Under the pieces are notes generated by a model. The model ran no database searches. It saw only the letters and a list, made by a program, of their open reading frames with translations, and had not been told where the DNA came from. DNA of 64,000 bases, from contig OZ024742.1 in assembly GCA_964016885.1 (NCBI GenBank), positions 117,800,001 through 117,864,000 on the forward strand, written 5' to 3'. Shown here piece by piece: positions 7,472-64,000 of the stretch (positions within the stretch are counted from its first letter, which is position 1; every line of letters begins with the position of its first letter). This DNA is from Eledone cirrhosa (taxonomy: Eukaryota). A program made the position numbers and the translations under genes.

Positions 7472-7580
<109 letters not shown>

Positions 7581-7996
7581 ATATATAAATCTAGCTGTCG
7601 TCTGTTCTACAGCGTAGATGTAATTCACTTCGCGCAGAAGTTTTGTTCAAATTTATTGCGAAAATTTTGTAAGTTCAATTTTAATTTTGATACTATTGTG
7701 TAGCTTGACCCCCCGTCTGAACTGTCAGGCGGTGGTTCAGCTCATCTTTACCCCTCCTAGGGGTGAAAAACCTGTTTTTAAAAATTTTGTGGCATAAAAA
7801 AATTTCAATCGTCTGACAGAAATGTTAAACGAAGCTAACGTAAATAGTGGTGGGGGGACAGCGGTAAGAGTTGTAAGCTCGCACGCTTTAGTCCCCCCCC
7901 CCTTCCTTCCCAACTAACGTCATAGAGAAGGAAGGAAAAAATAAAATAAAAATAGACGAATCTGCGGAGAAAAATGACGAAAACACAAATCTGGAC

Positions 7997-9738
7997 ATGG
8001 ATTCCAACAACGAAAAAAAAAAATTTGAAAAATTGCATGACAATATTAATACCACAAACAAAGACACAACAAACACAAAAATAACATTTGAAAACAACAT
8101 CATAACAGAAAGCAAAGCAGACGACAAAGTCAACACCAACAAGATTTCATTTGCACAAACAACAAAGAAATCTTTGACATATATACCTGAAAATATTTCA
8201 GATGTGGCACAAAGAATTGCAGACGCCAAACAATATATAACTGAAGGAGAGAATGGTATTTTATCGGTAAAAATGCCTCAAGAACTCACCAAAGACATTG
8301 AAAGTCAAACGGTCGTTTTCCGCACCATCAACAACACTTCTAAAAAACCTGAACAGCCAACTCAAACAGATATCAAAACAGTACTCACAGAAGTACTTAA
8401 TGAAACCACTTTCATAAGAAAAGACAGACTGTATGGAAGCCTAGCGATTATTATGAAGAACGAATCGCCGGCAAAAAAAAGTGCTTTGTCACGGATTCGT
8501 TCGAAAAATTTTACCTTTTATCCATCTTATATGGGTAAAAGAACTCAACGCATATGGCTGGATGCAATGATGCCAGATGTGGACTACTGCTGGCTCATAG
8601 CTGGCTTCATCGATCCAGCGAATGACAACGTGATTTCCATTTGGAAAACCACAGGCAATGCGTTCAGTGGAACAGGTATAGAGCTTGTAGTGCAAATGAA
8701 GCCTGAACGCATCGCCCAAATACCCGACAGAATCCTATTAGAGGGCCACGGGTATATAAACATTAGCGTGGAGGGGAGAAGACCGTCCTGTCATATCTGT
8801 GCAGGCAGAGGGCACCTGAAGGCGGCTTGTCCCCAACTCAACAAAAAGAAAACCCTGCTACCAACACCAGCTCCACCACCACCACCACCACAACAGATAA
8901 ACAAACAACAAAACTCAGTCCCACCCAACCCGTCCCTCAGTAAAACTACACCACCACCACAACACAAACAGTCACAACACATTACCCCAAAACAAAATAC
9001 AGGCCCACCCAACCCCTCACTCAATAAAACAACACAACCACCGCAGCCACAACACACAACACAGTCTAACATAGTGACATCCATCTCCCCCACAAAGAAA
9101 ACCAACACGGAAACATTACCAGCAAACATACCTCTTCCCTCCAACACTGAAGATAACCCAACGAATTCGGAGGAAGAAACGGAGTCCTTCAGACAGATTA
9201 AAAGGAAAAAAAGAAAACATGTGCAAAACACACAAGGCCAAACAACCCCACCCAAATGTCAACACAATCCAACAAAACACAAAACACCCCTCCAGCAACA
9301 AACAAAACCAAACCTGCCCCTCCCCTCTTCGAAACACTCACACCATCGGAAAAAAAGACATTACCCTATACTTACATCAACAGAAACAATAATAAATTAA
9401 ATGAACTCATAAACAATAATCCTTCGGTACAAACCGAAGGTGTAAACTTTGTTTCTTCAGAAAACTACCCACATTTAAAATTAATAAAGATCCCAATGAA
9501 CCTCTACCAAAAACTAAAAAAGGATTTTAAGGAGGACGTAGGACCACCCTCTGTCAAACCCATAAACCGCGTCCTACTAAAAAGCTTTCCCCCTCCCCTT
9601 CCCCTCCCCAACACAACTCCAAACACCCCAACCCCACCACACACTGACGACCCCACACCACCACAAGACACCCCTTCACCCAACACCCCCGACCCCATGG
9701 AAGTCGTGCGACCCGAACCCCGGGAAGCAGAAAGGTAG
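7997..9738 (+). CDS. Tx1 ORF1 (gag-like nucleic-acid-binding protein), one apparent frameshift between about 9250 and 9350
   Basis: ORF 7997-9400 contains the zinc knuckle CHICAGRGHLKAAC and a Pro/Thr-rich linker. The overlapping ORF 9256-9738 carries the C-terminal block (PYTYIN...NRVLLKSFP) that is also seen in copies B and C. Confidence 0.8.
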
Positions 9739-9771
9739 GTCTCTACACTCTCCTTTGGCTCTGCCGCCCAC

Positions 9772-12700
9772 ATGGATGTGTTAAGAGTAGGATGTTTGAA
9801 TGCACGTGGCCTGGGCTCAACTTGGAAGCAAGCAAAGCTTCTAAATAACCTCAGGTCATGTGGTATAAATGTAATGGTTATCTGTGAGACTCGGATCAGC
9901 GTCGTGCGGCAGCTGGCCCCCACCTTCGATGACTTTGAGGTGCATGCATCTCTCTGTCAACCTGGAGGTGGGGGTGGGGTTGTCGTACTGCTGCTAAAAC
10001 ACCTGGGTCTTGCCGTACAGGTTGTTCACTCGGACCCGGAGGGTCGTTTGTTGGTGCTAGACGTTGGCAGTAGTGAAGGTACGGCCTTGAGACTGGTCGC
10101 CGTCTTCTCCCCTTTCGGAGCTGAACGGCCCGACTTCTTCCAGCGTTTGGAGACTTTTCTGGGAACGTCGCGTTCCATGCTTCTAGCGGGCGATTGGAAT
10201 GACATCCTAGATGCACGTTGGGACTATGCGGGAGCATGTCCTAATAGAGGGGGGTGTAACATCCTCAAGGGGTTACTCGACCGTTTTAACTTGGTCGATA
10301 GATATCGACTAGATTTTCCAACTGTGCCTACCTGGACTTGGAAAAACCACAGTGGTCAATCTAGATCGTACTTAGATAGATTCTTAGTTAGAAGTAAGGA
10401 TAGGGACATATTAAGCTGTCCAGAAATGCGCACGGTTGGCTATACGGATCACAAATTAGTGACCTGCGTAGTCAATCTCGAGAAAACACATAAACAGGGT
10501 CCCGGTTACTGGAAACTTAATTTGTCTTTACCGGCAAAAGAGACTTACAGAAACCGGATTAGCATATTAGTTAAGGAGAGGTTGACGGGTGCAATCGTCA
10601 ACAACCGATGGAGGGCATCTCTCAAAAGAGAGATTAGAACAGAATCAATAAGTTATAGCAAGATGTTAGCTGCCGATAGGAATAGAAACGGGAAAGAATT
10701 AACAGGTAAATTAGAAGAGGCAATCAAGAGCGAATATGTGGCCAGAGTGCTGGCATCGAGGACGGCCTTGAACCAGTTTTTCGATGCAAAGCACGAAGGC
10801 TGCGTCATTCGAAGTAAAATACGTGCTCTAGGTAATGAGGGGGCCAAAGCCGTTGGCTGGGCCCGCGTGACAGAAACTAAGAGTGGAAATCGATCCACCA
10901 TCCGGTCGTTGCAAGACGAGGATGGACGGGTGATCCGGGAGCCTAAGCAGATGTGCGAGGCCTTTCAAAGGCACTTTGCCCGATTATTCGGGAGAGGCGA
11001 GGGTCCGGGCGGGGATGTGGATTTCGGTCCATACCTCGACGGCCTGCCGCGTCTCTCGAGCGAAGAGGCAGAGTCCTGCGAGGGACCAATCTCGGCTGAT
11101 GAGATCGGAGATGCGCCGAGCCAATACAGCAGACGCAAATCTCCAGGTCTCGATGGTATACCTTACGAACTTTATTTAGCAATGCCGGTCTTCTTCTCCG
11201 AACTCCTCGAAGCGGTCTACTGCAATTGGCAGCAGAACGGGAGAATTCCTTGTTCTGTAGCCAAGGGCGTAGTCTCGCTGGTGAGGAAGGACGAGAACAA
11301 GGGGGATAGTATAAATAATTTTCGGCCCATAACCCTGCTAAACACAGAGTTAAAGATTTTGGCCAAGGTGTTAGCAAAGAGGTTGGCGCTTGTCGTGGGT
11401 AGCCTGGTGGGAGATGCGCAGACATGTGCTATCCCATCCAGGTCCATTCACGATAACCTCCACCTCATGCGATACATCATAGAGAGGGTTGGCAACAAAC
11501 CCGGCTTCGGTGGGGCCCTGATCAACTTGGATCAGTCTAAGGCCTTCGATAGGGTCGACCATGGTTACCTGGATGCGGTGCTAGCGGCGGCTGGGTTCGG
11601 TCCTGTTTTCAGAGGCTTTATAACTGCCTTACATAGCAACCACATCTGTTCTAGGATCAAGGTGAACGGCTACCTTTCGAAGCCGTTCGAAATCACACGA
11701 TCCATTCGACAGGGGTGCCCTCTCTCCTCCCTTCTGTACGTATTGACTCTTGAGCCTTTACTGAGGAAATTGGAGTTGTTGCAGGGTATCCCCCTGGAAC
11801 CAGGATTGAGCAAAGCGGTGTCGGCCTACGCCGATGACGTAACAGTAATGGTATCGACCGACTCGGAGATCGAGGCGATCGGTACCTTACTGGAGGAGTA
11901 CGAAAGGTTGTCAGGAGCGAAACTGAACCGGGAAAAATCCATCGGGCTGCAACTCGGAACGTGGAGAGGCAGACCGATGCCTCCTGACGGTGTCTTCGGA
12001 CACTGGACGGAGGGCCCGGTAAAGTTGCTTGGGGTCTGGTTTGGACCGGACCTCCAGGTGGAAAAGAACTGGAACGAGGTTACGAACAAGGTGTTTGCAC
12101 TAACCCAGAAATGGGCCAAGTGTAAGCTGTCCCTAAAAGGCCGGGAGGAGGTGGCGAACATTTACATAGCGTCCGTCACTTACTACCGCCTGACTGTCGT
12201 GCCTTGCCCTAAGGAAACACTCACCACCATGGAACACATGCTCTTCCAATTTCTTTGGAAGAAGCGCCCTCCTATGGTGAGAAGATCCATCTGCTGCCAA
12301 CAACCTTCGAAAGGAGGGCTGGGGATGCCGTGGTTGATGATGCGTAGGCACGCATTAAGGCTACGGCACCTACAGGTATTCCTCACTGGTCAACCGGTGT
12401 GGGCTCCGTTCGTGAAACGAGCCTTTCCGAGACTCGTCTCGCTCACCGAGCTGCAGTCCTGGGTCAAGCAAAGATCCGGAAAACTGGGAGACTGGCACAC
12501 TGGGTGTGCTCAGGCGCTCAGGGCTCTCTGGCAAGCGGGCCAGGCCATCGGTGGAGAATTCACCTCATCATTCTATAGAGGGCTGGTGGCTAGCAGGGGC
12601 GATGACACCCTTGGAGAGTCGCTGGACATGGAAGAGGACGAACTGGCCAGCCTGTTCGGTAGGACTTTCGGCCCGGGACCAATGGACAACTTCCAGAAGT

Positions 12701-13209
12701 CACTAGCCTGGCAGTGCTACCGGGGGGCTCTACCCGTTCGAGAGAGGCTCTACAGACACGGGCGCCCGGGCAGGGATCCCTCGAAAAAGATTTGCCTTAG
12801 ATGCGTGCGTCACGAAGAAACCGTTGCGCCCGCATTGGTGCAATGTCCGGGCGTGGCTGATCTGTGGGGCTACGCCGAACGACTGCTGTCGCGGGTGGCG
12901 CCGATTCAATTGACCGCCGAGTCCGTGATGACAATCAAACCGCCTCCCCTCTTCACAAAGGAAGCAAAGGCGGTTTTTCTGTGCGTAATAGCCATGTTGA
13001 AAGAGGTTGTTTGGTGGACACGATTGAAAGGTCTGAGGTCAGGCAACTTCCTCTCTGGCCATAGTCTGGTCTACTTCTTCCGATATCACTTCGGAAGAAG
13101 GATAAGAATGAAGAGAGAGGTGCTTGGCCACAGGCAGTTTTATGAAAGGTGGGTGATAGTGGCGAGAATGGCTCGTGTAAATGGGCCTTCTCTGTATACC
13201 ATCCTGTAG
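9772..13209 (+). CDS. Tx1 ORF2: AP endonuclease + reverse transcriptase + C-terminal zinc-finger region (1145 aa, open)
   Basis: APE motifs CLNARGL, CETR, GDWN, LDRF, TDHK. RT motifs FRPITLLN, LDQSKAFDRVDH, RQGCPLS, AYADDV. Confidence 0.95.
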   Translation: MDVLRVGCLNARGLGSTWKQAKLLNNLRSCGINVMVICETRISVVRQLAPTFDDFEVHASLCQPGGGGGVVVLLLKHLGLAVQVVHSDPEGRLLVLDVGSSEGTALRLVAVFSPFGAERPDFFQRLETFLGTSRSMLLAGDWNDILDARWDYAGACPNRGGCNILKGLLDRFNLVDRYRLDFPTVPTWTWKNHSGQSRSYLDRFLVRSKDRDILSCPEMRTVGYTDHKLVTCVVNLEKTHKQGPGYWKLNLSLPAKETYRNRISILVKERLTGAIVNNRWRASLKREIRTESISYSKMLAADRNRNGKELTGKLEEAIKSEYVARVLASRTALNQFFDAKHEGCVIRSKIRALGNEGAKAVGWARVTETKSGNRSTIRSLQDEDGRVIREPKQMCEAFQRHFARLFGRGEGPGGDVDFGPYLDGLPRLSSEEAESCEGPISADEIGDAPSQYSRRKSPGLDGIPYELYLAMPVFFSELLEAVYCNWQQNGRIPCSVAKGVVSLVRKDENKGDSINNFRPITLLNTELKILAKVLAKRLALVVGSLVGDAQTCAIPSRSIHDNLHLMRYIIERVGNKPGFGGALINLDQSKAFDRVDHGYLDAVLAAAGFGPVFRGFITALHSNHICSRIKVNGYLSKPFEITRSIRQGCPLSSLLYVLTLEPLLRKLELLQGIPLEPGLSKAVSAYADDVTVMVSTDSEIEAIGTLLEEYERLSGAKLNREKSIGLQLGTWRGRPMPPDGVFGHWTEGPVKLLGVWFGPDLQVEKNWNEVTNKVFALTQKWAKCKLSLKGREEVANIYIASVTYYRLTVVPCPKETLTTMEHMLFQFLWKKRPPMVRRSICCQQPSKGGLGMPWLMMRRHALRLRHLQVFLTGQPVWAPFVKRAFPRLVSLTELQSWVKQRSGKLGDWHTGCAQALRALWQAGQAIGGEFTSSFYRGLVASRGDDTLGESLDMEEDELASLFGRTFGPGPMDNFQKSLAWQCYRGALPVRERLYRHGRPGRDPSKKICLRCVRHEETVAPALVQCPGVADLWGYAERLLSRVAPIQLTAESVMTIKPPPLFTKEAKAVFLCVIAMLKEVVWWTRLKGLRSGNFLSGHSLVYFFRYHFGRRIRMKREVLGHRQFYERWVIVARMARVNGPSLYTIL

Positions 13210-13423
13210 GTAAAGAAGTGAAGGAGAGGGGAGCACCTTCTCCATGTGCTCCCCGGGAAAAGGATTGCACACTTTTTCGGGGGTGTGTGCAACCCCCATC
13301 ACGTCCCCTCCCTTTTGAGGTTGTTTTCGATTATTTTCATTTTATACCCTTTTTACTCGATTGTATGTAAACTCCCCCTTTGTATTTGTCCCTTCTTTTT
13401 ATGCCTTTATGGTAAATAAAGAA

Positions 13424-13424
<1 letters not shown>

Positions 13425-13493
<69 letters not shown>

Positions 13494-13512
13494 ATATCTA
13501 TCTATCTATCTA
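13425..13512. repeat. (TCTA)n between Tx1 copies A and B
   Basis: Read directly from the sequence. Confidence 0.95.
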
Positions 13513-16500
13513 GAGACACCACAAAACCACAAAAACAACAATCACCAACACAAACATACAACCACCAACACAAATAACAACAAAAACACCACACCTAAAA
13601 CTCATAAGGGTTTCGATAGAGACCTATCAGACATTGAAAGAAAGGTTTTCACAGGACGTTGGCAACTCCTGCCAAAAACCAATAAACCGTGTCCTGTTGA
13701 AATGTTTCCCCACCCCACTCAACACCCCCACCAGAACTGAAATGGAGATTGAACAACCCGATCTCCAGGCAACGAAAAGGTAAGTGCACCTTTTCGTCCT
13801 TTTCTCCAACTCTTCTTCACCAACATGGCTAGTTTATGAGTTGGAAGCGTGAATGTGCGTGGCCTAGGGATGCCCTGGAAACTTTTAAACGACCTTAGGT
13901 CACACGGTATAGATGTATTAGCCATCACCGAGTCCAGGATCCACAACAAGCAGTAACTAACCCCATCTTCAATGACTTTGAGATCAACGCATCTCTCTGT
14001 CAGCCGGGAGGTAGAGAGGGAGTGGCTGTAATGTTTCAGAAGAACCTGGACGTCGAAGTACAGCAAGTACACTTGGACACGGAGGGTAGACTGGTAATCC
14101 TAGACGTGAACCGTATTGGAGGTGGAGCCTTCAGACTGTTGGCTGTTTATGCCCCGACCGGACAATCGCAATCACGGCCAGACTTCTTTAAGCGTCTAGA
14201 GTCTTTTCTGGGAATGTCTCGCTCCTTACTTTTAGTGGGGGACTGGAATGGTATCCTAGATGCACGATGGGACTATGTGGGAGCATGTCCCAGTAGAGCG
14301 GGGTGCAACAGCCTCAAAACTTTAATCGGCCAATTCCAACTGGCCGATAGGTATCGACTAGATTTCCCAACTGCACTACAGTGGACGTGGGCAAACCGCA
14401 GCGGGACATCTAGATTGTATTTAGATAGGTTCTTCATTAGAGAAAGGGACAAGGAAATGTTAAGCTGTCCACGAATGCACATGGTTGCCTATTCAGATCA
14501 CAAGTTAGTCGTCTGCCTAGTCAACCGTGATAGAATACATAGACAGGGACACGGATACTGGAAGCTGAACATGTCGTTGCCGGCACGTAAAGCTTACAGT
14601 GAACGGATAAGTAGACTAGTCAAGCAACAGTTAACGGGAGCCATCGTCAACAATAGATCGTGGTACTCTCTCAAGAAAGCAATTAGAATAGAATCGATAG
14701 GGTATAGCAGAGAGTTAGCCTTAGAGAAAAACAGAATAGAAAGAGAACTAGTAGCCAAGGTAGAGGAGGCACTTAGAAGTGGCAACGCGGCTAGAGTGTT
14801 AGCGTCGAGAACGGCACTGGACCAGTTCTTCGATGCGAAACACGAAGGCTTGCGTGGTCAGAAGAAAAATACGTGCTCTAGGAAACGAAGGAGCGAAAGC
14901 TGTCAGCTGGGCCCGAGTGGCGGAGGAAAAAAGTGGCAACAAGTCCACGATTCGGTCTTTGAAAGACCAAAACGGACGCGTGCTACTTGACCCCAAGCAA
15001 ATGTGCGCGGCCTTTGAGCGGCACTTTGCGCGACTGTTTGAGCAGAACGACGGTGAGCCGAACGGGGCAATGGACTTTAGTTCATACCTCGACGGCCTGC
15101 TGCGTCTCTCGAACACGAACGCCGAGTTCTGCGAAAGACCGATCACGGACACTGAGATACGGGACACTCTGGGCCGCTGCGGGAAACGCAAGTCACCCGG
15201 TCTAGATGGTCTACTCTACGAGCTTTACATAGGCATGCCAGACTTGTTCTCTGGCGTCCTCGAAGCCGTCTACTGCAATTGGCAGCAGAACGGGAGAATT
15301 CCCAGTTCTGCAGGCAAGGGCGTAGTAACGCTGATCAGGAAAGACGAGAACATGGGGGACGAAATTAATAACTTCAGGCCCATAACTCTGCTCAACACAG
15401 AGTTAAAGATTTTGGCCAAGGTGCTAGCGACGAGGTTGGCGCTTGTCGTCGAGAACCTGGTAGGGAAAGCGCAAACGTGTGCAATCCCGATCAGGTCCAT
15501 ATACGACAACCTCCACTTCATGCGATACATCATAGAGAGGGTGGGTAGTAAACCCGGCTTCGGTGGGGCTCTGATCAATTTGGATCAGTCTAAGACATTC
15601 GATAGGGTCGACCATCGATACTTGGAAGCGGTTCTTAGAGCGGCCGGTTTCGGTCCCGTGTTCAGAGGATGAATCGAGGCGATGCACACAAGCATCTGCT
15701 CGAGGGTCAAGGTGAACGGCTACCTATCGGAGCCGTTCGCAAACACGCGTTCCATTCGACAGGGGTGCCATCTCTCCTCCATTCTGTTTGTATTGACTCT
15801 AGAGCCACTACTGCGGAAATTGGAGCTGTTGCAGGGCATCTCTCTAGAACCGGGACTGCGCAAAGCGGCGTCGGCTTATGCCGACGACTTGACGGTAATG
15901 GTGTCGAGCACCTCGGAAAACGTGGTGATCGGCAACTTACTGAAAGAATACGAAACGCTGACGGGAGCAAAACTAAACCCGGACAAGTCTGTCGGTTTGC
16001 AAATCGGTACGTGGAGGCAAACCGATGACGTCCGACAGCGTCGTTGGACGCTGGACGGACAGACCGGTGAAATTGCTCGGGGTTTGGTTCGGTCCAGACC
16101 TCCGGGTGGAGAAAAACTGGAACGAGGTCACGGCCAAGGTGTTTGCACTCACCCAGAAGTGAGCAGAGTACAAACTGTCCTTGAAAGGTCGAGCGGAGGA
16201 GGCGAACACTTTCATAGCGTCGGTCATCTACTACCGCTTGACTGTCGTGCTTTGTCCCCGTGAACACCTCGCCAAGATGGAACGCATGCTCTTCCAGTTT
16301 CTGTGGAAGAAGCAGGCTCCGCTGGTGAGGAGATCCGTCTGCTGTCAGCACCCTACCAACGGAGGGCTGAGAATGCCCTGGCTGATGATGCGCAAATATG
16401 CGCTGAGGCTGCGGCATCTCCAGGTATTCCTCACCGACCCCCAACCGGTGTGGGCACCGTGTGAGACAGGCTTTCCCACAGCTCGTCTCGCTGACGGAGC

Positions 16501-17460
16501 TGCAGTCCTGGGTCAAGAAAAGACCGAAAACGATGGGCGCCTGGCACATTGAATGCGCTCAGGCGCTCACAGTCCTCTGACAAGCGGGTGCAGCAATCAG
16601 TGGAGACTCCACTTCGACATTCTATAGAGGGATTGTACGTTACAAGGGCGACGACGTGCTCGGAGAGACTCTGGGCGTCGAAGACGATGAGCTCACCAGT
16701 CTGTTTGGTAGGACATTCCGCCCGTGACCTATGGACAACTTCAGAGGTCCCTGGCTTGGCAGTGCTACCGAGGAGCTCTACCGATTCGTGACAAGATCTA
16801 CAGGCACGGACGCCCCGGCAGGGATCCTTCCAAGATTACGTGTCCAAGATGCGCGCAGGACATTGAAACAGTCCTGCACGCAATTGTACACTGCCCGGGC
16901 GTAACCAACCCGTAGAACTATGCAGAACAACTGCTGTCGCGTATGGGACTGCCGAGTCCATAGTAAGGATCAAACCGCCAGCCTCTTTCAAACACGAAAG
17001 AGAGGCGGTTTTCCTCTGTACGGTGGCTATGGTGAAAGAAGTTATATGGTGGACGAGGTTGAGAGGACTGAGGACAGATGCCTTTCTCTCCGGACAACAA
17101 TTGATTCCCTTCTTTAAGTATCACTTTAGAAGGAGAATCAGGGTGGAGAGAGAGGCACTGCACCCCAGTAAATTTACTGAAAGGTGGGTGAATGAAGCAA
17201 AAATGGCCCGAGTTATAAGCCTGTAGTTTGAAGAAGAGAGCAAAAGGAAGAAAGGAGCACTTGCACAAGACGCTCCTGGAGTTGAGGGTTGTTCTATCGA
17301 CGGGGTATTAAACAACCTATTTGTGGCGCCTCCCCCTTATTGGGGATTTCGATTGTTGTAATTGTTTATTTTTATATTTTTTACACGACTGTATGTAAAA
17401 TCTCCGGCATGTCTTTGTATTGTCCCCTTTTCTTGTGCGCCCTTGTGGCTAATAAAGAAA
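13513..17460 (+). mobile_element. Tx1 copy B, 5'-truncated within ORF1, ORF2 disrupted
   Basis: ORF1 tail (NRVLLKCFP), ORF2 ATG at 13825, frameshifted APE/RT fragments 14022-17226, and a 3' end AATAAAGAAA followed by TATATCTATCTATCT. Confidence 0.92.
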
Positions 17461-17475
17461 TATATCTATCTATCT

Positions 17476-20400
17476 CGGAGCAGATAGACGTGTTTTTGTT
17501 TCGCTCCTGCATTTTGTCGGAATTTATTACGAGAAGCGGTAGGTCTGTTTAAGTAATTTGTTATTTGTTGTGTTTAACCCCTCGCCTGGGCCTGCAGACG
17601 TTGAGTAAAATAAATTTCGCCCCTCTTTGGGGCGAAATTTAATAGTTATAAGTTGTCGATAAAAAGTCGTTTAGTGACAATGGACGCCATTAATACGACG
17701 CATGCCACGCTCCCCAAGGAAAGTGATAGAGAGAAGGTAGCAGAACAACGCTGTAAGCCTTCCTTCCTCACTCCCGCAAAAGATACCACGGAATCAAAAG
17801 AAAAAATTGTGGAAATGGGTGAAAACCCCAAAAGTAACAATTACACAAACAAGAATAACAATGGCAATAACAACACAACCAACAACAGCAACAATGACAA
17901 TAACAACACAACTAACAACAGCAATAATGACAACACCAACAAAGGAAAAAAGCAAGCCAACACGAATAATAACAACAACACTGATAACAACACTAAAGAA
18001 AACGGACCCACAGCTGCAGTCTCCTTCGCTCAGGCAGTCCGAGAAACGCAGACATACAAGGCAGTGGACATCTCGAATGCCAAGAAATTGCTGAAAGAAG
18101 CAAGGAATTGTGTAAATTTCGGGGAAGGTGGGGAATTCACAATTACCTCCCCCGAAGAAATAGAAGGGACACAGTCCTCAGGACTGTAATCTTTAGGACA
18201 GTTTCGAACACGACTAGGAAACCGGCTCAATTGTCCCAAAGCGAAATTGAGCTGGTCCTAAGTAGTGCCTGGAAGGATATCGCTTTCATACAGAAATGGA
18301 AATTGTATGGAAGCATATCTGTTTTAATGCAAGATCAATTGGGGGCACGGAAATATTCTGTGTCGCCAATTGTATCCAAATCATACACCTTTTTCCCCAC
18401 ATAATTGGGGAAAAGAACTCAAAAGATAAGAATCTCAGACATCAGGCCAAATGCGAGCATTTGGTGGGTGCTAACGGGATTCTTAGAAGATGAGGACACA
18501 ATCCTTTCGATAGGCGAATCCACCGGGGGCGTATTCGGCGGCAATAGCCTTGAAGTTCTGGTCCAAATGAGACCAGAACGGATAGCAAGAATAGCGCAGC
18601 GTGTGTCCCTGGATGGAGTCGCCTTCATAAACATTTCTTTTGAGGGCAGGCGGCCTTCATGCTACCACTGTTCAAGAAGTAGTCACCTAAGGGCTTCCTG
18701 TCCCCTTTTAAATCCCCCCCCCAAAAAAAAAGCTGCTTCTGCCCACCCCACACACAACACCACCACCACCACCACCACCACCACCACAACAACAACAACA
18801 ATAACAACAACAACAACACGAAAAAATAACAACACAAGACACTGTCCCACCCAACCCCTCCCCACCTAAAACAAATACAAAAGCAACCACAACAAAACCC
18901 CAAAATATACCCCTCCCCAACAACAACATGGACGAGGACCCCTTATCGACGTCACTCAGTGACGACGAGGGAGAACCCCTTCAACCTGTAAAAAGAAAGA
19001 AAAGAAGGCACCACATTAATAAAAATGCAACAAACACACGACCACCAGCACAAACAGAACAAACATCACAAACAAAAAAACCCACCCCTCCCGAAAACAT
19101 AACACATACTACAAAACGCAAACACACAACAATAACAACAAACAAAAACAAACACAACACAACAAAAACAGTATACATACATCAACACAAACAACAAAAC
19201 ACTTGTGAAAACAATAGACAAAGACCCTTCGGTGGAAACCGAAGGGAAAATGTTCACCAACGCGGCGACTCGACTAAACCGCATTTTAAAATGATTAGGA
19301 TCACAAGGGACACCTACGCAATGCTCAAACAGAACTTTCCCGAGGACGTGAGGAACCCCTGTACTAGACCTAGCAACCGCGTCCTCTTGAAATGTTTCCC
19401 CACCACACAGTGATGTCCCCACCACATCCCAAACAACCCCACCGACACCCCGTGGAAATTGTGCAACCTGGTCCCCAGGAAAAGGACAGGTAGGTGTCTT
19501 TTCCTTTTTCTCCACTCTAAACTCTTCACCACCAACATGGCTGTTATAAGAGTTGGATGTTTAAATGTGCGCGGCCTGGGGATGTCCTGGAAACAGGGCA
19601 AACTCTTAAATGACCTCAGGTCGCACAGAATGGATGTGATAGCTATTTGCGAGCACCAACTTGCCCCCATCATCGACGACTTTGAGATCTATGCATCTCT
19701 CTGTCAGCCGGGGGGTTGGGGGAGGGGTGGTCGTTCTGGTGCGAGAACACCTGGGCCTCGCAACACGGAAGGTACACCTGGACCCGGAGGGTCGACTGGT
19801 GGTTCTAGACGTAGGCAGTAGTGAAGGTGGAGCCTTCAGGCTCGTGGCAGCGTATGCCCCATCTGGGACACCGCGACCGGACTTCTTTCAGCGCCTAGAG
19901 ACTTTTCTGGGAACGTCTTGCTCCTTGCTTTTAGTGGGGGACTGGAATGGTATCCTGGATGCACGTTGGGTCTATGTAGGGGCATGTCCCGATAGAGGGG
20001 GGTGTAACAGCCTCAAACGGTTAATCGGCCGATTTGATCTGACCGATAGATATCGACTAGATTTTCCGACTGTGCCACTGTGGACGTGGATTAATCGTAG
20101 CGGAACATCTAGGTCGTACCTAGATAGGTTCCTAGTTAGAAATAAGGATAGAGACATATTAAGCTGTCCACAAATGTTCATGGTTGACTATTCGGATCAC
20201 AAGTTGGTGACCGGAGTGGTCAACCTTGATAGAACCCATAGACAGGGAGCCGGTTACTGGAAGCTAAACTTGTCCTTACCGACAAACAAAGCTTACAGTA
20301 AGCGGATTAGCACTCTAGTTAAGCAGCGGTTGACGGGGGCAATTGTCAACAGCAGGTGGTGGGGCTCTCTCAAGAGAGAAATTAAAATAGAATCGATAGG

Positions 20401-23199
20401 TTTTAGTCAGGAATTAGCATAAGATAGGAATAGAACTGAAAGGGAATTGATAGATAGAGTAGAAGAGGCGATTAGGAGGAGCAACGTGGCCGGTGTGTTG
20501 GCGTCAAGAACAGCCCTAGATCAGTTCTTTGACGCGAAGCACGAGCGCTGTGTTGTCAGGAGTAAAATACGTGCTCTGGGTAACGAGGGAGCCAAAGCTG
20601 TTAGCTGGGCCCGAGTGACAGAGGCAAAAAGTGGAAACAAGTCCACGATTCGGTCTTTGAAGGACCAGGATGGACGCGTGATCCTTGAACCTGAGCGGAT
20701 TTGCGCGGCCTTTCATCGGCGCTTTGCACGACTGTTCGAGAGGGGCGGCGGGCCGGGTGAGGCCATGGATTTCGGTTCATACCTCGACGGTCTGCCGCGG
20801 CTCTCGGACGGGGAGGCGAAGTCCTGCCAAAGGCCGATTTTAGCCGCTGAAATAGGGGAAGCGCTGAGCCTATGCGGCAAACGCAAATCTCCCGGTCTCG
20901 ATGGTCTACAATACGAACTTTATGTAGCGATGCCGGACTTGTTCTCCGATCTCCTCGAGGCGGTCTACTGCAACTGGCAACAGAACGGGAGAATTCCCAG
21001 TTCTGTGACCAAGGGCGTAGTCACGCTGGTGAGGAAGGACGAGAACAAGGGGGATGACATAGATAACTTCAGGCCCATAACTCTGCTAAACACAGAGTTA
21101 AAGATTTTAGCCAAGGTGTTAGCGAAGAGGTTGGCGCTTGTCGTCGGGAACCTGTGGGAGAAGCGCAGACATGCGCAATCCCGTCCAGGTCCATACACGA
21201 CGACCTCCATCTCATGCGATATATCGTAGAGAGGGTAGGGAACGAACCCAGCTTTGGTGGGGCCCTGATCAACTTGGATCAATTTAAGGCGTTCGATAAG
21301 GTCGACCATCGGTACGTGGATGCGGAGCTCGCAGCGGCAGGCTTCGGATCTGTTTTCAGGGGCTGGATTGCTGCAATGCACAGCAGTAACACCTGCTCGA
21401 GGGTCAAGGTGAACGGCTACCTCTCGGAGCCGTTCCAAAGCGCGCGATCCATCCGACAGGGATGCCCTCTCTCTTTCCTTCTGTATGTGCTGGCTCTTGA
21501 GACACTACTGCGAAAGTTGGAGCTATTGCAGGGAATCCCCTTGGAACCGGGATTGTGGAAAGCGGTGTCGGCCTACGCCGATGACGTGACAGTAATGGTG
21601 TCGTGCGCCTCGGAAATCAGGCAGATCGGCACCTTACTGGAGGAATACGAAAGGTTTACAGGAGCCAAGCTGAACCGGGACAAGTCCGTCGGTTTGCAAC
21701 TCGGAACATGGAGAGGCAAACCGATGTCCTCCGACGGCGTCGTCGGACGCTGGACGGAGGGACCGGTGAAGCTGCTCGGGGTCTGGTTCTGACCGGACCT
21801 CCAGGTGGAGAAAAACTTGGACGAGGTAACGGGCAGGGATAGTTTGCACTCGCCCAGAAGTGGGCCGAGTGCAAACTATCCCTGAAAGGTCGAGAGGAAG
21901 TGGCGTACACTTATATAGCGTCCGTCATCTACTACCGCTTGACCGTCGTGCCTTGCCCAGCGAAAACGCTCGCAAAAATGGAGCGCGCGCTCTTCCGATT
22001 CCTTTGGAAGAAGCGGGCTCCTTAGGTGAGAAGATCCATCTGCTGTCAACCCCCTTCGAACGGAGGGCTGGGGATGCCGTGGCTGACGATGCGTAGACAC
22101 GCATTAAGGCTACGGAACCTCCAGGTATTCCTCACAGGTCAGCCGGTGTGGGCCCCTTTTGTGAGGCGAGCCTTTCCGTCACTCGTCTCACTCACCGAGC
22201 TGCAATGCTGGGTCAAGCAAAGACCGAGAAGGGTGGGCGACTGGCACATTGAATGTGCCCAGGCTCTCACGGCCCTCTGGCAAGCGGATCCAGGAAACAG
22301 TGGAGACTCAACCTCATCATTCTATAGATGGTTGGTGCGCAGCAAGTGCGACGACGCTCTCGGAGAGGCTCTGGGCATGGAGGAAGACGAGCTAGCCAGT
22401 CTGTTCGGTAGGACGTTTGGCCCGGGACCGATGGATAACTTCCAAAAGTCCCTGGCTTGGCAGTGCTACCGAGGAGCTCTACCCGTTCGGGACATGCTCT
22501 ACAGACACGGGCGCCCGGGTAGGGACCCCTCGAAGAAGATCTGTCCGAGATGCGTGCGTGACGAGGAAACTGTCGCGCCCGCATTCTTACACTGCCCGGG
22601 CGTTGCTGACCTGTGGGGCTATGTGGAATGACTACTGTCGCGGGTGGGACAATCCGATTGACCACCGAGTACATTGTCACGATCAAACCGCCTCCCCCCT
22701 TCAAAAACGAAGGAGAGGCGGTTTTCCTCTGTGTGATAGCTATGGCGAAAGAGGTTGTATGGTGGACGAGGTTGAAAGGGCTGAGGTCAGGCACTTTTCT
22801 CTCCGGCCAACAACTGGTCCTTTTTTTCAAGTACCATTTTAGAAGAAGGATCAGAATGGAGAGAGAGGTGCTCTACCCCAGCAAGTTTTATGAAAGGTGG
22901 GTGAAAGTGGCGAGAATGGCCCGAGTGAACGGGCCTTCTCTCTATATCAGCCTGTAGGTGAGAGAGGAGAGGAAGGAGGAGAGGAAGGGAGCACCCGCTC
23001 TTTGTGCTCCTGAGGAGGAGGGTTGCACATTTTTTTCGGGGGTGTGTGCGACCCACGTCAACGCCTCCTTCCTATTGAGGACTTCGATTGTTGAATTTGA
23101 TTTGTTATATGTTTTTACACGTCCCTTGAAATGTATGTAAACTCCCCCTCTTGTATTTGTCCCAATCTTTGATGCCCTGGTGGCAAATAAATAGAAAGT
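17476..23199 (+). mobile_element. Tx1 copy C, full length but decayed
   Basis: 5'UTR homologous to copy A. ORF1 fragments 17680-19493 contain CYHCSRSSHLRASC. ORF2 runs from ATG 19537 to TAG 22957 in several frames. The 3' end runs into (TATC)n at 23200-23221. Confidence 0.92.
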
Positions 23200-23864
23200 T
23201 ATCTATCTATCTATCTATCTATTCAGCTGCCTGCCTGTCAATCTATCTATCTGCCTACATATCTATCTGTCTGTCTGTCTGTCTGTGTACGTGTATGTAT
23301 GTATGTCTCAGTATGTATACACCTTCCACCAGCTCCATATCTGCCAATTATCAACAAATTGAAGAGCTATTGCATTCTATAAAATCGTATTTGTTGCATA
23401 AAAACTCACCTAGTTACAGGCAAGATGTTTTACTTGAATTAAATGTGTACGAACTCTTATAGGGTTTCTACTCGACTCTGTGATTGGCCTTGTGGGAGGA
23501 GAAGAGAAAACAACAGAAAACGAACACTACCAACTGAGCAAACATAAATTGTCGGATCACGTCGTTTCAACCGGAAGTGTTAATGGAAAAATGACAACTG
23601 TAGAGTGATTTCTCTGCACGTTTATTTCGTGGATCTAATTCGATGCGCAACTATATTTATACTGCAGTACCAACAGCAGCAGCAACAACAACAACAAAAA
23701 TAACAACTACTACTACTACTACTACTACTGTGTAGTTTAGTATTCTACTCACTGCCTTAGACAACAACAATAACGTAAACGACGATGACAACGACAACGA
23801 CACAAACCGACGACGTCGACGACGAGGGTAGTGATGGTGATGATGATGATGGTTATAATAATGG

Positions 23865-28419: not shown

Positions 28420-31400
28420 TGTTATCTCTTTCTCTTAATTTCGAGTATATTTTTTTGACCGGCCACCTTCCTGGTGGCAAGGTTGTAAAAGAAAAGAAAT
28501 TGTCATCCCTTGAATCGCAAGAATGTTTTGCAAATTTTGAAGGTGCCAGCTATCGCAGCCATTTGTAGACTATGAATTAGGGAGCTGCGCTTTTTGTCCG
28601 CAAATCCAAGTTCAGTCATACTTTGGTCCAAGCGGGTTGGTATATAACCCGTAGCTCCAATAATGATGGGTATGAAGCTAAAGGTGTATCTTGGATACTG
28701 GATTTGTAAACTCCTCATCAATGGTCCGTAGATGTCCTCCTTCTCCTGTATTTTTCTGACAACGTTTACACCAAGTGGGCAGCTGATCTCCACAACAGAA
28801 CACGTTTTCAATGTGTGGTCCCAAACAACAATATCAGGCCGGTTGTGCTTTAATTTGGTGGCAGTTTTTATTTTCAGGTTCCACCAGTATTCATTAGTGC
28901 CATCTGTCTCAATATATTCTTCCTCGTTTGTTGTTAATTTTGTTTTCCGAAGTGCGTTCCAGATGGTTCTAGCTATCCCATCGTGTCTCATGGGGAGGTA
29001 GTAGCGAGATGACATTCTTTCGCAGCTGGCAACAATGTGGCTTACATCCTCGATCTTTGTTTTACATAGCCTACATTTATTGTCAGCTGCTGGCCCTCCC
29101 CTTTTGTGCAGCAGATATTTGGTAGGGAGTTCTTGTTCCTGTATTGCATAGAGATATCCCTCAAGGTGTGATGTCATAAACTTGTCGGAACTCCATGCCA
29201 GGCTTTTTGAGTGGTTTATCCCCTCTATGGTCTGTGTTTTACGCCTCAAGTATCCATGCACAACTTTTTCTGTAAATTGGTCAATTTTTTTATCTTGTTT
29301 GAACATTGAATAGGATCTTCCGATTTCTCTGGGTGAAAGATTTATATCAGGCTTTATTCCATATCTCTCCTCCAGATCAGTCGCTATTCTAATGATATTT
29401 TTTTTTTCATGCTCATAAACCTGGGCAAGATGGTTACCAACCTTTTTCCTCTGTTGAAGGTGTTGCTTCAGTGTTACTATCCGAGTCTCATATGTTGTTA
29501 ATATTGATTTTAGACCCCGGTCACCTTCCTTGCGTGAGAAGTATAGCCTATCCACATCACCATTGATGTTAAAGTTCCCAGTAACACTGAGAAGTTTTCG
29601 AGTTCTAACATCCATCTCACTTAGTTCTTGCAATGACCAGTTCAGCAGGCCAAATGTTGGCATTAGAATTGGCACAGCATAAGTATTGTGGGCAATGTAT
29701 TTGTTGTACGATGACAGTTCTGATGACCATATTTTCTTTACTCTTCTGAGGTATTCAGTTCTGGTTTTCTCCTTATTTATGGGTCCATCATATCTGACAT
29801 TCTCATACTGTCCAAGATATCTGTAGTTGTCACCTGACTGTAGAGGTTGTATTGTCAGGCCGTTCATCTCTAGATTTCTAGAGGAGGGCACAGCTCTTCC
29901 ACGTTTTACTGCCAAATATGCACACTTAGACTTACCAAATTTCATTTTGATGTCGGTTGAAAATTGTGTAATGAGGTCCAATTGTTTCTTGATGTCATTG
30001 ATATTTGGCCCATACAACTTCAGGTCGTCAACAAAGAAAAGATGGGAGATACTTCTGGGCCCACTGCTTTGTCCACCTTGTTTCCTGAGTAGGTAAGATA
30101 GTGGATTCAGTGAGAGAACGAAGAGTAGCACTGACAAACTGTCACCCTGAAAGATGGCCTTCTGGTAATGTATCTTATCAGTCTTAACTTGCTCCTTCTC
30201 ACCTCTAAGGATCAAATTGGTGTACCAGTTCTTGGTCAGGGGTTCAACAGCAGCTACCAATGGTTGTGGGACTTTAGCTAACTGTAAAGCCTTAATAATC
30301 CACCCATGAGGTACACTATCAAATGCTTTTTGATAGTCCAGCCACACCACAGTCATGTTTCTGCGATTCTTTGTTGTTTTTTCCTGAATCATTTTGTTAG
30401 TTAGTAGGTGATCTATGCATCCCACACCTCCCTCTTTCCACCAGGTTGCTCAGGTGTTATGATGTTGTTGGTAGCACAGTGATCCTGTAAGAACAGGTTA
30501 AGGCACCCAGTATATAATTTATACATGATGTTTTGGCAGGCTATTGGGCGGTAATTTTTAGCAAGGGTGGTTTGGCTATTTTGGGGAATGAGGAGAGTAG
30601 TGGCAGTTGATAACCATCTGGGCAGTTCTTGTGTACCTTTAATGGTTTCTGTAAACAGCCGTATGAGATCTTGCCGATAGAAAGTGAAATTCTTCAACCA
30701 GTATCCTGTAATGAGGTCTGGGCCTGGCGATTTCCTGTAGAGCTGTTTCCAGTATTGACCCATCTATGTCATATTGTTTTGTCTGGACATGTTGGCAGTA
30801 GTCCTGTTCCAGTTCTTTTAGCCAATTAGTTTGTCTGTTGAATCCGTCATCCTTTTCCCATACAGATCTCCAGTAGCTCTTAACCTGTTCTTTTGAAGGG
30901 GTGTCATTTACAGGGATTGAGCTTTTGCCACCGAAGCTGCGATAAACTGATTTAGGATCTCTGGCAAACAATCTATTTAGCACTTGTCGTTTATGTGCTG
31001 TTAACTTATATTTTAGTCTTTCTGTTGTAGCTGTGAGTTGTTGTTTCAACTGGTGTAATTTGGAGTTCAAAGTTTTAAATTTTGTATCTCCAAACCGTCT
31101 CTCTAACTTTTTTTTTAGGTCTTCCTGGTGTCGTGTGAAGTTGCTCTCTATGTTGCATTTCATAACGACTGCGATGTGTGAGATACTTCGTCTCAGGGAC
31201 AAAATTTTGCTTTTTAAATTTCGCATCCACGCTGGTTCAGGCTTTCTGTTTGTATCTTGATTGCGTGGTTTTAGATGTGTGTTATATGATAGCAATGTGA
31301 CAGCTGAAACATATAACAAAACATTAAGCGTTTCAAATGTCGTTTCTACACCTTTAGATCGTATAACCTTCAGATAATTGCCAGCTATTTCGTTCACCGC

Positions 31401-31586
31401 TTCTAATTCCAATTTAGTGGGTTCTTTACTGATTCTGGTGTTGTATGGTCTGTCACTCACATTAAGGCTGTGTATCTCTTGAAACATATCGTTCCATATC
31501 ACTTGTAGGGTGTCCACAAGTTTTTGGTGTTCTTTTTGTTCAGTAGAGTCATGAATTTCAGCCTCGTTGTTGATGTGGTGACAATT
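28420..31586 (-). mobile_element. R4/Dong-clade non-LTR retrotransposon (RT + restriction-like endonuclease), 5'-truncated, two frameshifts
   Basis: ORFs 30639-31517, 30413-30763 and 28503-30425. RT motifs NYRPIAC, WLDYQKAFDSVPH, IFQGDSLS, FVDDLKLY. CCHC CRLC..HIVASC, RHD, and RLE motif KHNRPDIVVWD..VEISCP. Confidence 0.9.
28503..30425 (-). CDS. RT-RLE C-terminal portion of the R4/Dong-like ORF (pseudogenised)
   Basis: 640-aa open frame with the RT, CCHC and PD-(D/E)xK-type motifs listed above. Confidence 0.85.
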   Translation of the reverse strand: MGCIDHLLTNKMIQEKTTKNRRNMTVVWLDYQKAFDSVPHGWIIKALQLAKVPQPLVAAVEPLTKNWYTNLILRGEKEQVKTDKIHYQKAIFQGDSLSVLLFVLSLNPLSYLLRKQGGQSSGPRSISHLFFVDDLKLYGPNINDIKKQLDLITQFSTDIKMKFGKSKCAYLAVKRGRAVPSSRNLEMNGLTIQPLQSGDNYRYLGQYENVRYDGPINKEKTRTEYLRRVKKIWSSELSSYNKYIAHNTYAVPILMPTFGLLNWSLQELSEMDVRTRKLLSVTGNFNINGDVDRLYFSRKEGDRGLKSILTTYETRIVTLKQHLQQRKKVGNHLAQVYEHEKKNIIRIATDLEERYGIKPDINLSPREIGRSYSMFKQDKKIDQFTEKVVHGYLRRKTQTIEGINHSKSLAWSSDKFMTSHLEGYLYAIQEQELPTKYLLHKRGGPAADNKCRLCKTKIEDVSHIVASCERMSSRYYLPMRHDGIARTIWNALRKTKLTTNEEEYIETDGTNEYWWNLKIKTATKLKHNRPDIVVWDHTLKTCSVVEISCPLGVNVVRKIQEKEDIYGPLMRSLQIQYPRYTFSFIPIIIGATGYIPTRLDQSMTELGFADKKRSSLIHSLQMAAIAGTFKICKTFLRFKG

Positions 31587-31640
31587 ATGTATGTATGTAT
31601 GTATGTATGTATGTATGTATGTATGTATGTATGTATGTAT

Positions 31641-40245: not shown

Positions 40246-40287
40246 ACCACTGACGATGTTGCAGATGTGCAACGAAAGATTTATGAT
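40246..40287 (+). ncRNA. Minimal type I hammerhead in the 5' pseudo-LTR
   Basis: ACCA CTGACGA t GTTGCA gatg TGCAAC GAAA GATT TA TGAT. Stem I is weak (one mismatch). Confidence 0.7.
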
Positions 40288-40470
40288 AAACTATATATAT
40301 GTGTTTGTGTCTATATTGTATCTGTATTATTTTTGACCGTCGGTCAGTCAATGGCAACATTGAGGACCGAGTAAGTTAGATTACCGATATAAAAGACACA
40401 GAAGCGAGAAGCGAAAACCAACCAAACAATGAGTGTGTTCTGTTATTAATTCTGGCAATATTACACAAAT

Positions 40471-61161: not shown

Positions 61162-64000
61162 TTTCATTTATTAGCCACAAGGGCCGACATGTAGGGGACA
61201 ATACAAAGACAAGCACGGTGGGGTTTACAATAAGGTTGAGTAAAAGTGCACAATGACAAGACTAATTTAACAATGAAGATATAAAAATAAAAAATAAACT
61301 ATGCATAAATATAACAAAATAAATTCCCCGATAGGGGGTGGACGACTCGGGTACCCCAACAATCCTGAACCACCCTGCGCTTCTAGGGCACCCAGGGAGA
61401 GCACCCCTCTCCTCAAGTTAGCTAGCCTATAGGTGCATGGTCAGAGTAAAAGATAGGTGCATGGTCAGAGTAGGCCCATTCACACGAGCCATTCTCGCCA
61501 CATTCACCCACCTTTTAGCAAATGTACTGGGGGGAAGCACTTCTCTCTCCACCCTCACCTTCCTTTCCAGGTGAAACTTGAAGAAGTTGATGAGGGATTG
61601 GCCGAATAGAAAAGTGTCTGTCTTCAGTCCTTTTAACCTTGTCCACCATATAACCTCTTTCGCAACTGCCACCAGACAGAGGGAAATTTCCTGCTCTTCC
61701 TGACCTAAGGAAGGCGGTGGGTCGATCTTCACCATGGAGTCGGCCGATAGCCGGATTCGTTCCACACGCGACAGTAGCTGTTCGACATAACTCCACAAGT
61801 CAGTAATGCATGGACATTGGACAAGTGCGTGCAGAACGGTTTCGTCGTTCTGTGCGCATCTTGGGCAGGTCCGTATGACAGCACTTCCGTGCCTGCAGAG
61901 TTTATCCCGAACCGGCAGAGCCCCCCTGTAGCACTTCCAAGCGAGGGATTTCTGGAAATTGTCCATCGTCCTCCGCTCAAAAGTCCTCCGGTACAGAGTG
62001 GCCAGTTCGACTTCGTCGAGGCCCAAAGCTTCTCCGAGTGCGTCATCGCACTTGCCCACCACTAATCCTCTATAGAACTCGAGAGTGGAAGTTCCACTGA
62101 TCCCATTGCCCGCTTGGTAGAGGGCAGTGAGTGCCTGGCAACATTCCAGGTGCCGGTCACCCAGTCTCGGTCTCTTCTTAACCCAGGACTGCAGTTCAGT
62201 CAAAGAAATGGGCGGAAAGGCCCGTCTGATAAACGGTGACCACACCTGTTCACCGTTGAGGCAGAATATCTGGAGATGTCGCAGCCTCAACGCATGTCTG
62301 CGCATCATTAGCCACGGCATGCCCAGCCTTCCGCGTAGAGGGTGCTGGCAGCAGATGGACCGCCTCACCAACGGAACTTGTCCACTCCACAAGAATTTGA
62401 AGAGGAGCCGTTCCAACTTGACGAGGCGCGGACGGGGGCAAGGCACGACGGCCAGGCGGTAGTAGATGACAGACGCGATGTACGCATTCGCCACCTCCGC
62501 GCGACCTTTCAGTGATAGCTCCCTCCCAGCCCATTGGGTGAGCCTGGCTACTCTGCTCGTTACCTCGTCCCAATTCTTTTCCACCTGGAGGTCTGGTCCG
62601 AACCAAACCCCGAGCAACTTTACCGGTCCGTCCGTCCAGCGCCCTACGACGCTGTTGGACGGCATGGGCTTGCCTCTCCAGATTCCGAGCTGCAAGCCCA
62701 CCGACGTTTCCGGTTTAAGTTTGGCTCCTGTCAACCTTTCATATTCCTTCAATAAGGTGCCGACCACCTCAATTTCTGAGGTGTTCGACACCATTACGGT
62801 GATGTCGTCCGCGTAAGCCAACACCGCCCTTCCACGTCACGGTTCGAGCGGGATTCCCTGCAACAGCTCCAGCTTCCGTAGTAAAGGCTCGAGAGTCAAT
62901 ACGTATAGAAGGGTAGAGAGAGGGCACCCTTGACGGACCGATCGGGAGAGCCGAAATGGTCCCGAGAGGTGGCTATTAACCTTGACCACCAAGCGTGTGC
63001 CGTTGTGCATTGCAGAGATCCAGCTTCTGAAGACAGGGCGGAAGCCAGCTGCTTTGAGGACAAACTCCAGATACCGATGGTCGACCCTATCGAATGCTTT
63101 TGATTGATCTAAATTGATCAGAGCCCCACCGAAGCCAGGTTAACACCCTACCCTCTCTATGATGTATGGCATGAGGTGGAGATTGTCGTGTATGGACCTG
63201 GCTGGGATTGCACAAGTTTGCGCCTCCCCAACCAAATCCTCGACGACAAGCGCCAATCTCTTTGCTAACACCTTGGCCAAAATCTTAAACTCTGTGTTGA
63301 GCAGAGTTATGGGCCTGAAGTTGTCTAATGTATCCCTCTTGTTCTCGTCTTTCCTTATCAGCGTCATCACTCCCTTGCTAACAGAACTGGGAATACTCCC
63401 ATTCTGCTGCCAGTTGCAGTAGAGTGCTTCGAGGAGATCGGAGAACAAGTCTGGCATATTTACGTAAAGCTCGTAGGGCCGGCCATCCAAACCGGGTGAC
63501 TTGCGCCTCATGCAGACGACAAGGGCGTCCTGAATTTCGGCTGAAGTAATCGGCCTTTCGCAGCGCTCAGCGTCGACCGTCGAGATGCGCGGCAAGCCGT
63601 CAAGGTAGGGACTGAAATCCGCTACTCTCTCTGACTCGCCACTCTCCCCGAACAACCGATCAAAGTGCTAGCGAAAGGCCTCACACATCCGCTTGGAATC
63701 GCTTATCTTGTGTCCGTCTCGGTTCGCCAAAGACCGAATTGTGGTTTTATTACCACGCTGCGCCTCCGCCACGCGGGCCCATCGGACATCTTTGGTTCCT
63801 TCGTTTCTCAACGCACGCGCCTTAGCTCTGACAATGAAACCTTCGTGTTTCGCATTGAAGAAATGGTCTAATGCCATTCTCGCCGCTAGAACGCCAGTTG
63901 CAATCCACTACAAATAGCCTCGTCTAACTCATCTACCAGCTCCCCCTCCTTTCCATTTTTCTCTGACGCTAGTTCTTTGTTGAATTCTATCGAAGTTACT
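61162..64000 (-). mobile_element. Tx1 copy E, runs off the window end; 3' end abuts (ATT)n
   Basis: ORF2 fragments 63668-63877, 63140-63655 and 61427-62824 (AYADD; CPRCAQNDETVLHALVQC). The 3' end GCCCTTGTGGCTAATAAATGAAA is followed by TC(ATT)n. Confidence 0.92.

Follow-up and report, generated by a model that had tools for sequence, protein, structure and literature searches.

Microsatellite-targeting long interspersed nuclear elements (LINEs) of the Tx1 clade have been described as Kibi, Koshi and the crocodilian Tx1 (PMC4494074), and L1-Tx1 families have been counted in Octopus vulgaris (PMC13282606). The element considered here lies in a 64,000-nt stretch of the Eledone cirrhosa genome (assembly GCA_964016885.1, contig OZ024742.1, positions 117,800,001 to 117,864,000 of the forward strand), which we call the window and whose numbering is used unless a locus is named. 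Three head-to-tail copies, A (Table 1), B (13513-17475) and C (17476-23200), are flanked there by (TATC)n arrays, and a fourth copy, E, lies on the minus strand. With the Tx1-clade elements it shares two open reading frames (ORFs), a CCHC ORF1, an endonuclease-reverse transcriptase (RT) ORF2 and ends of which many adjoin microsatellites. It also carries a 5' splice-site (donor) motif at the boundary between the ORFs, and the sequence around the ORF2 start is complementary to that around the ORF2 stop, a predicted long-range pairing referred to below as the clamp. The accessible text of the two Tx1-clade accounts describes no donor, clamp or splicing, and that of PMC13282606 contains no match to 'splic'.

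A conserved donor likewise ends the structural gene of the Ty1/copia element EVD of Arabidopsis, where splicing produces a subgenomic gag RNA and where U1 at the donor also blocks premature termination and early polyadenylation of the full-length RNA (PMC5580714). EVD differs in being a long terminal repeat (LTR) element whose short intron is coupled to early termination and whose spliced RNA has been demonstrated (PMC5580714), whereas in the Eledone element, known from sequence alone, the intron would comprise the whole of ORF2, and a clamp acting over long range is predicted besides. In HIV-1, U1 at the major splice donor suppresses a poly(A) site ~200 nt upstream, and in foamy virus RNA structure presumably blocks the access of U1 and allows 3' end formation; these are, however, retroviral LTR sites with known acceptors, and the structure is local rather than a 3.5-kb pairing (PMC3694450). 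The closest structural analogue is the PRTE-DRTE interaction of a tombusvirus, a pairing over ~3.5 kb of RNA immediately downstream of the first stop codon with the 3' end, which has mutually exclusive local structures and controls expression of the polymerase (PMC3234231). The tombusvirus interaction drives in-frame readthrough, whereas here the helix would cover a splice donor and an AUG, and the frame offset between the ORFs varies by family, so that readthrough of that kind is excluded.

Among LINEs, the spliced human L1 products known as SpIREs illustrate that LINE RNAs can be spliced and retroposed, as is considered here, although their splicing lies within the 5' untranslated region (UTR) and ORF1 and is a dead end (PMC5860796). 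In SART1 and L1, where ORF2 is reached by termination-reinitiation, its translation is influenced by RNA structure close to its start; the SART1 structure, however, lies downstream of an overlapping stop-start and is not a helix between spacer and 3' UTR (PMC3894237, PMC5972666). The open-access literature covered here describes neither excision of ORF2 nor a spacer-3' UTR helix in Tx1-type elements, most subscription papers and Repbase reports lying outside that scope.

A splice-donor motif at the ORF1/ORF2 boundary

An initial annotation of the window had noticed that ORF1 of copies A, B and C ends Arg-stop within a consensus 5' splice site, and all three motifs are found where it placed them (Table 1); the donor of A is joint top among the 293 GTs of that element. 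Among 100 matches listed from a scan that used the ORF2 start as its sole anchor, 91 junctions were readable, and 84 of these, by hand count, carry G/GTRRGT (the slash marks the splice point), more than chance would give, the seven departures being single rows. Across families, whose letters (A-K, E2, F2 etc.) are informal labels of this analysis, the donor reads GTAAGT, GTGAGT or GTAGGT and so supplies all three stop codons, with G at +5 and T at +6 constant; the family of locus L274 has CAG/GTAATT. The reading frame varies as well: the donor is crossed in phase 2 in A, B, C, D, F, J and K, in phase 1 in E and G, where the ORF1 stop follows two codons on, and in phase 0 in H, where ORF1 continues for 12 codons past the donor. 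The phases of five decayed copies (D_L114, D2, I, L273 and L277) were read by hand from a shared Met-Glu motif or excluded.

A donor kept in three codon phases, apparently a new observation, and with all three stop codons cannot owe its presence to the coding of Arg-stop, and the proposal that AGGTRRGT is conserved beyond coding need is to that extent borne out. It is well supported that the boundary between the ORFs holds a conserved, putative 5' splice site that is selected as sequence, and the match to the U1 consensus makes binding of U1 a natural inference.

For distant relatives 80 metagenome loci were fetched and 60 without a whole ORF2 and its flanks were dropped; among the 20 kept, a donor-like motif at the ORF1 stop occurs in one only (L206), and pairing of the kind described below in none (z -2.5 to +2.3). 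In L206, a metagenome contig, GGG/GTGAGT stands ~74 nt before the ORF2 start and crosses the end of ORF1 in phase 1, as in E and G; its z of +1.8 gives no clamp signal.

Complementary arms around ORF2

The complementarity between the spacer and the start of the 3' UTR was missed in the initial annotation. On one side the arm compared ran from the donor as far as 15 nt beyond the AUG; on the other it took in the final 15 nt of ORF2, its stop and 50 nt of the UTR. The predicted duplex amounts to -31 to -58 kcal/mol in 17 copies, with 30-49 predicted pairs in the 12 that were tabulated, and in 11 of the 17 none of 300 shuffles, whose means were -20 to -35 kcal/mol, matched the real value. The sense duplex is the stronger in 15 of 17. 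Within the element the best partner site is the ORF2 stop in all seven cases, narrowly so in A and B, and with wide flanks the helix between the arms beats local folding by 13-34 kcal/mol (14/14). In 11 of 14 the AUG faces the final codon of ORF2, and spacer length correlates with the length of the purine tract (rho 0.79, n=14).

The pairing is also specific to the family, by a test that is new here: with row and column effects removed, the own-family partner held the top rank by row as well as by column in 8 of 10 families, and none of 200,000 permutations equalled the family-specific pairing, a proportion that is not a true p-value because the families are related. Paired changes occur on both arms, in coding sequence and at the donor itself. 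They include G-C versus A-U just after the AUG in F and A-U versus C-G at the next pair in A, and in D, A and C the partner of the donor changes along with the donor. We regard the feature as real, the complementarity being family-specific and accompanied by observed compensatory change, and the helix as its predicted form. Family F keeps both donor and clamp with no AG at its ORF2 stop.

That donor and arms are passive motifs, held by shared ancestry, by coding need (Arg-stop, Leu-stop) and by low-complexity tracts, is very improbable. The families are indeed related, and purine and pyrimidine tracts pair easily, as the shuffle means attest; the donor, however, survives changes of phase and stop despite the divergence of its flanks, and the pairing is both family-specific and compensatory.

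The reading that we favour, tentatively and at a little under an even chance, is a U1 site combined with an RNA clamp that likely masks the donor, the AUG and the AG of the ORF2 stop in the finished RNA. While the 3.5-kb ORF2 is being transcribed the 5' arm would be free, and U1 small nuclear ribonucleoprotein would bind the donor, where it would likely shield an intronless, A-rich RNA from early polyadenylation. Once made, the 3' UTR would pair over donor, AUG and stop AG, so that the full-length RNA would remain unspliced and available for completion and copying. In the cytoplasm this helix would make ORF2 initiation depend both on ribosomes coming off ORF1 and on the integrity of the 3' end, and ORF2 translation would require the helix to melt. 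Most of the resemblance of the ORF2 stop to an acceptor would then follow from its pairing with the AUG context, and if ORF2 is excised at all, that would be a leak or a peculiarity of certain families. For the role of U1, which like the other functions is inferred, we offer that a poly(A) hexamer precedes the donor by 74-472 nt in 9 of 9 copies checked, a geometry like that of the HIV-1 donor and the upstream site which it suppresses.

Several points weigh against a U1 site under a clamp. The upstream hexamers occur at the rate expected from composition, with no excess. In copy E, the weakest, 17 of 300 shuffles reached the energy of its duplex, and in A and B a rival site elsewhere comes within 1 kcal/mol of the best. 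Pyrimidine and purine tracts pair readily and the families are related, so that p-values overstate independence; the strand asymmetry expressed as G.U against A.C (63 vs 44, p=0.08) is not a significant G.U excess. The minimum-energy fold of the whole RNA contains 26 clamp pairs in an F2 copy and none in copy A. Pairing of the donor core (+2 to +4) is poor in families E2, H, I, J and K, so that masking there would be only partial. Lastly, on a crude acceptor score of our own, not calibrated on host introns, the AG of the ORF2 stop ranks 1-7 of 251-270 AGs in all nine TAG-ending families.

It is unlikely, though worth weighing, that the clamp serves translation or copying only, as a gate to ORF2 reinitiation, a limit on ORF2p or a mark of intact RNA for the RT, and that the donor is spliced elsewhere, for example to an AG at about -250 or to host exons. 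The exact facing of the AUG and the last ORF2 codon in 11 of 14 would suit such a role, as would family H, which has AUA instead of AUG, and the control of polymerase translation by long-range pairing in a tombusvirus (PMC3234231). In F, F2 and E2 the top-scoring AG does lie ~250 nt before the ORF2 stop; that site, however, falls within the codons of a proline-rich motif and does not score highest in A-D, and the helix is anchored at the donor too, with a partner that changes with the donor in several families.

ORF2 as a candidate intron

The initial annotation had proposed that all of ORF2 may be spliced out, leaving an ORF1-only mRNA that keeps the 3' UTR. In the form weighed here the donor would be joined to the stop AG, or to an AG 7 nt upstream of it, and the whole RT gene excised, the choice being gated by a 3.5-kb clamp that would hide both sites and the ORF2 start, license the unspliced RNA and set the ratio of the products in a transcriptional race. 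We consider this possible but doubtful. A perfect donor usually implies splicing, and the clamp is compatible with excision as its regulator. The copia gag subgenomic RNA is a precedent (PMC5580714), and the rank of the stop AG given above is the best support. The ORF2 ends first noted, CCTGTAG/G in A (13209) and C (22957) and CCTATAG/G in E (minus strand, 61429-61427), are all present; copy B has a short deletion, and TAG/T at 17224, and a B-family fragment at ~32.7 kb has TAG/G.

Joining at the stop AG brings a stop one to three codons later in A, C, E2, G and H, which between them use all three donor phases; in A and C, where a regenerated stop had been predicted, it comes after a single codon. 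Most families have an extra stop triplet 2-3 nt past the ORF2 stop. In B, by contrast, joining at the stop AG would add at least 19 codons to ORF1, an extension already foreseen for that family, and the same holds for J and K. The AG 7 nt upstream, which is indeed there in B and C, would be needed in B, J and K; use of the upstream AG in B, D, J and K would end ORF1 at the ORF2 stop.

The distribution of the acceptor argues against excision. By hand count of 100 ORF2 ends listed (from 19,393 pattern matches), 75 read TAG/G, 15 TAA and 10 otherwise. The TAA ends come from group F/F2, in which ORF2 is open, copies stand in tandem and the donor is perfect; this group makes up 51 of the 100 junction rows listed. 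An AG at the ORF2 stop is missing in all 20 open-ORF2 copies and in all 10 F2 copies, and the nearest AG ranks 53-81. Family G, the sister of this group, ends TAG followed by T or A. A YAG acceptor at the ORF2 stop is thus not conserved across families, being missing in F/F2, and it appears, as a further new observation, to have been lost in the most frequent junction group. The predicted helix, moreover, spans the whole candidate acceptor, with the pyrimidine tract facing ORF2 codons 5-7, so that most of the acceptor letters are explained without splicing; the later stop triplets lie within the helix as well. Of the suggestion that donor and acceptor alike are conserved beyond coding need, the donor part holds (84/91) and the acceptor part does not, given the TAA ends of F/F2 and letters that the predicted pairing mostly explains.

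A spliced RNA would keep the 3' UTR with its junction ~200 nt from the end, so that even truncated insertions would reveal the junction. Five genome-wide exact-match patterns, which can miss decayed copies, were used in the search. In the Eledone genome the family A patterns gave 18 and 2 matches, all point variants of intact copies. The degenerate pattern written for families A-D and H-K found 7, all intact, where intact junctions sharing its upstream motif number 6,452. The E and F patterns had no matches genome-wide, intact E/F junctions not being counted. Among 30 family-A loci, five without the exact key were judged by alignment only, and all continue into ORF2. Precisely ORF2-deleted copies, a prediction of the excision proposal, were thus found by none of the patterns, and this apparent genome-wide zero, which is new here, lowers the ORF2-excision model, the more so beside 19,393 ORF2 ends. 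ORF1-only non-autonomous derivatives, which we take to be comparable to those named HAL1, would have had ORF2 removed, and no such copies matched. The documented cis preference of L1 (PMC5860796) could hide spliced copies. It also bears on the analogy with gag-only splicing: L1 ORF1p acts mainly in cis (PMC5860796), so an ORF1-only mRNA would help less than a gag-only RNA, and the analogy is weakened. For ORF2 as an intron, in sum, the donor has gained support from its three phases and three stops, and excision at the stop AG has lost it through F/F2 and the missing ORF2-less copies. If excision is nevertheless real, a clamp that licenses only unspliced RNA would explain why spliced copies never retropose.

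Internal deletions were inspected in 20 rows from 197 loci, one of which fits GT-AG. This is a 720-nt in-frame ORF2 deletion in L011 (2095-2099), which was rejected as a retroposed spliced RNA because of a 5-nt microhomology and its single occurrence in the genome. Among the 15 of 142 joints listed from four contig sets there is no donor-to-ORF2-end joint, and among all 12 loose ends listed from two of these sets none lies at the donor; the kind of contig is unrecorded in each case, so these results count neither way for splicing.

The spacer itself might be a mini-intron whose removal takes out the ORF1 stop and fuses the two ORFs, or the stop might be read through, and either is highly improbable. 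The two ORFs do share a frame in A and K, and a pyrimidine tract with an AG directly precedes the ORF2 AUG in D and in some copies of E; the offset, however, takes all three values (0, 1 or 2) across families, no such AG exists in A, B, C, F, G, H, J or K, and the intron would be only ~28-37 nt long. Both were rejected as general mechanisms, on the missing AG in most families and the variable offset. The tract and AG in question, 7-8 nt before the ORF2 ATG, are confined to D (L113-L129) and E (L154, L155 and L111), where the AG could serve as acceptor for a donor farther upstream and so yield an ORF2 mRNA.

Family H, common at ~10 of the 100 ORF2 ends listed, has ATA in place of the ORF2 ATG of its sister families (L139:2790-2835, L150:2735-2780; G000:C1:5846486). 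Its ORF1 reads past the donor and stops on a TAG that overlaps the ATA, and there is no upstream Met in the ORF2 frame, which suggests either reinitiation at a codon other than AUG or a -1 slip on the A-run that precedes the stop.

The element and its families

Table 1. Features of the element in the window (slashes mark putative splice points)
Feature	Position	Strand	Remarks
Copy A, full-length L1/Tx1-type LINE between (TATC)n arrays	7590..13423	+	5' boundary approximate
ORF1 of A, ends Arg-TAG	7892..9738	+	CCHC knuckle near 8790-8831
5' splice-site motif AAG/GTAGGT over ORF1 stop of A	9732..9740	+	GT at 9735
5' arm of predicted clamp in A: donor, 37-nt pyrimidine spacer, ORF2 AUG (9772), first codons	9734..9804	+	limits approximate
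ORF2 of A, endonuclease and RT	9772..13209	+	open, 1,145 aa
3' arm of predicted clamp in A: last ORF2 codons, stop, purine tract, stretch facing donor	13174..13244	+	limits approximate
Candidate 3' splice site ending at ORF2 stop of A (AG 13208-13209)	13184..13210	+	rank 1 (tie of 2) of 251 AGs, crude score
3' UTR of A	13210..13423	+	predicted local hairpin ~13223-13243 competing with clamp; AATAAA at 13415
Donor of copy B, AAG/GTAAGT	13777..13785	+	GT at 13780
ORF2 stop of copy B	17224..17226	+	decayed context TAG/T
Donor CAG/GTAGGT and 47-nt spacer of copy C	19487..19536	+	GT at 19490
ORF2 end of copy C, stop (22955-22957), purine tract	22930..23000	+	predicted spacer partner, -58.5 kcal/mol
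ORF2 end and 3' UTR start of copy E	61380..61460	-	E junction outside window (L111), phase-1 donor

The coding sequences of copy A place it among the L1/Tx1-type LINEs, the Tx1 label being drawn from a reading of the sequence and not from a tree with named Tx1 elements. ORF2 matches PF03372 (the N-terminal AP-like endonuclease) and PF00078 (RT) in Pfam, and its best relative of solved structure is human L1 ORF2p (E 1e-47). ORF1, separate and upstream, has a 1-nt frameshift near 9245 in copy A and translates to a CCHC knuckle of the form C-X2-C-X4-H-X4-C; it has no informative match in Pfam or PDB. Rfam gave no match within 7500-23400, nor did a plasmid search.

In the genome at large the clade is numerous: tight patterns match 19,393 ORF2 ends and 10,044 ORF2 starts (control 240), and there are 1,260 candidates for the end of the A ORF1. 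Retention of the donor in a distant relative was tested within this genome, on the F/G group, which is ~55% identical. The P0002 clade (P0001-P0005 being 37-66% identical relatives) is absent among the 40 best own-genome matches. TATC or ATT repeats follow 18 of 30 3' ends, TTC follows one and other sequence 11, tail and target not being separated in these counts. In loci L081-L110 the 3' ends consist of AATAAA and ~10 nt more, then the microsatellite, without poly(A); the repeat is TATC in A-D and H-K and ATT in the E, F and G groups. Four copies (L141, L140, L149 and L276) are apparent recombinants or nested insertions that join the spacer of one family to the 3' end of another, and the clamps predicted in such mixed-family copies are often weaker or bulged.

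Elsewhere in the window there are other, unrelated RT-encoding LINE fragments on the minus strand (28503-31649 and 57823-60310), and a 1-kb direct repeat of 98.6% identity (39519-40540 and 43571-44593) lies around another RT-containing region (42239-44055).

How translation in LINEs gets across the spacer to ORF2, how these elements avoid the splicing and shortening of a long intronless RNA, and how they favour their own intact RNA are open questions (PMC3894237). A helix that links the ORF2 start to the ORF2 stop over a U1 site would be one testable structure for all three problems, and the dozen or so natural families offer ready compensatory variants, with F, which has no acceptor, and H, which has no AUG, as natural controls. 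Excision of ORF2, if it were confirmed, would be the LINE counterpart of gag-only splicing.

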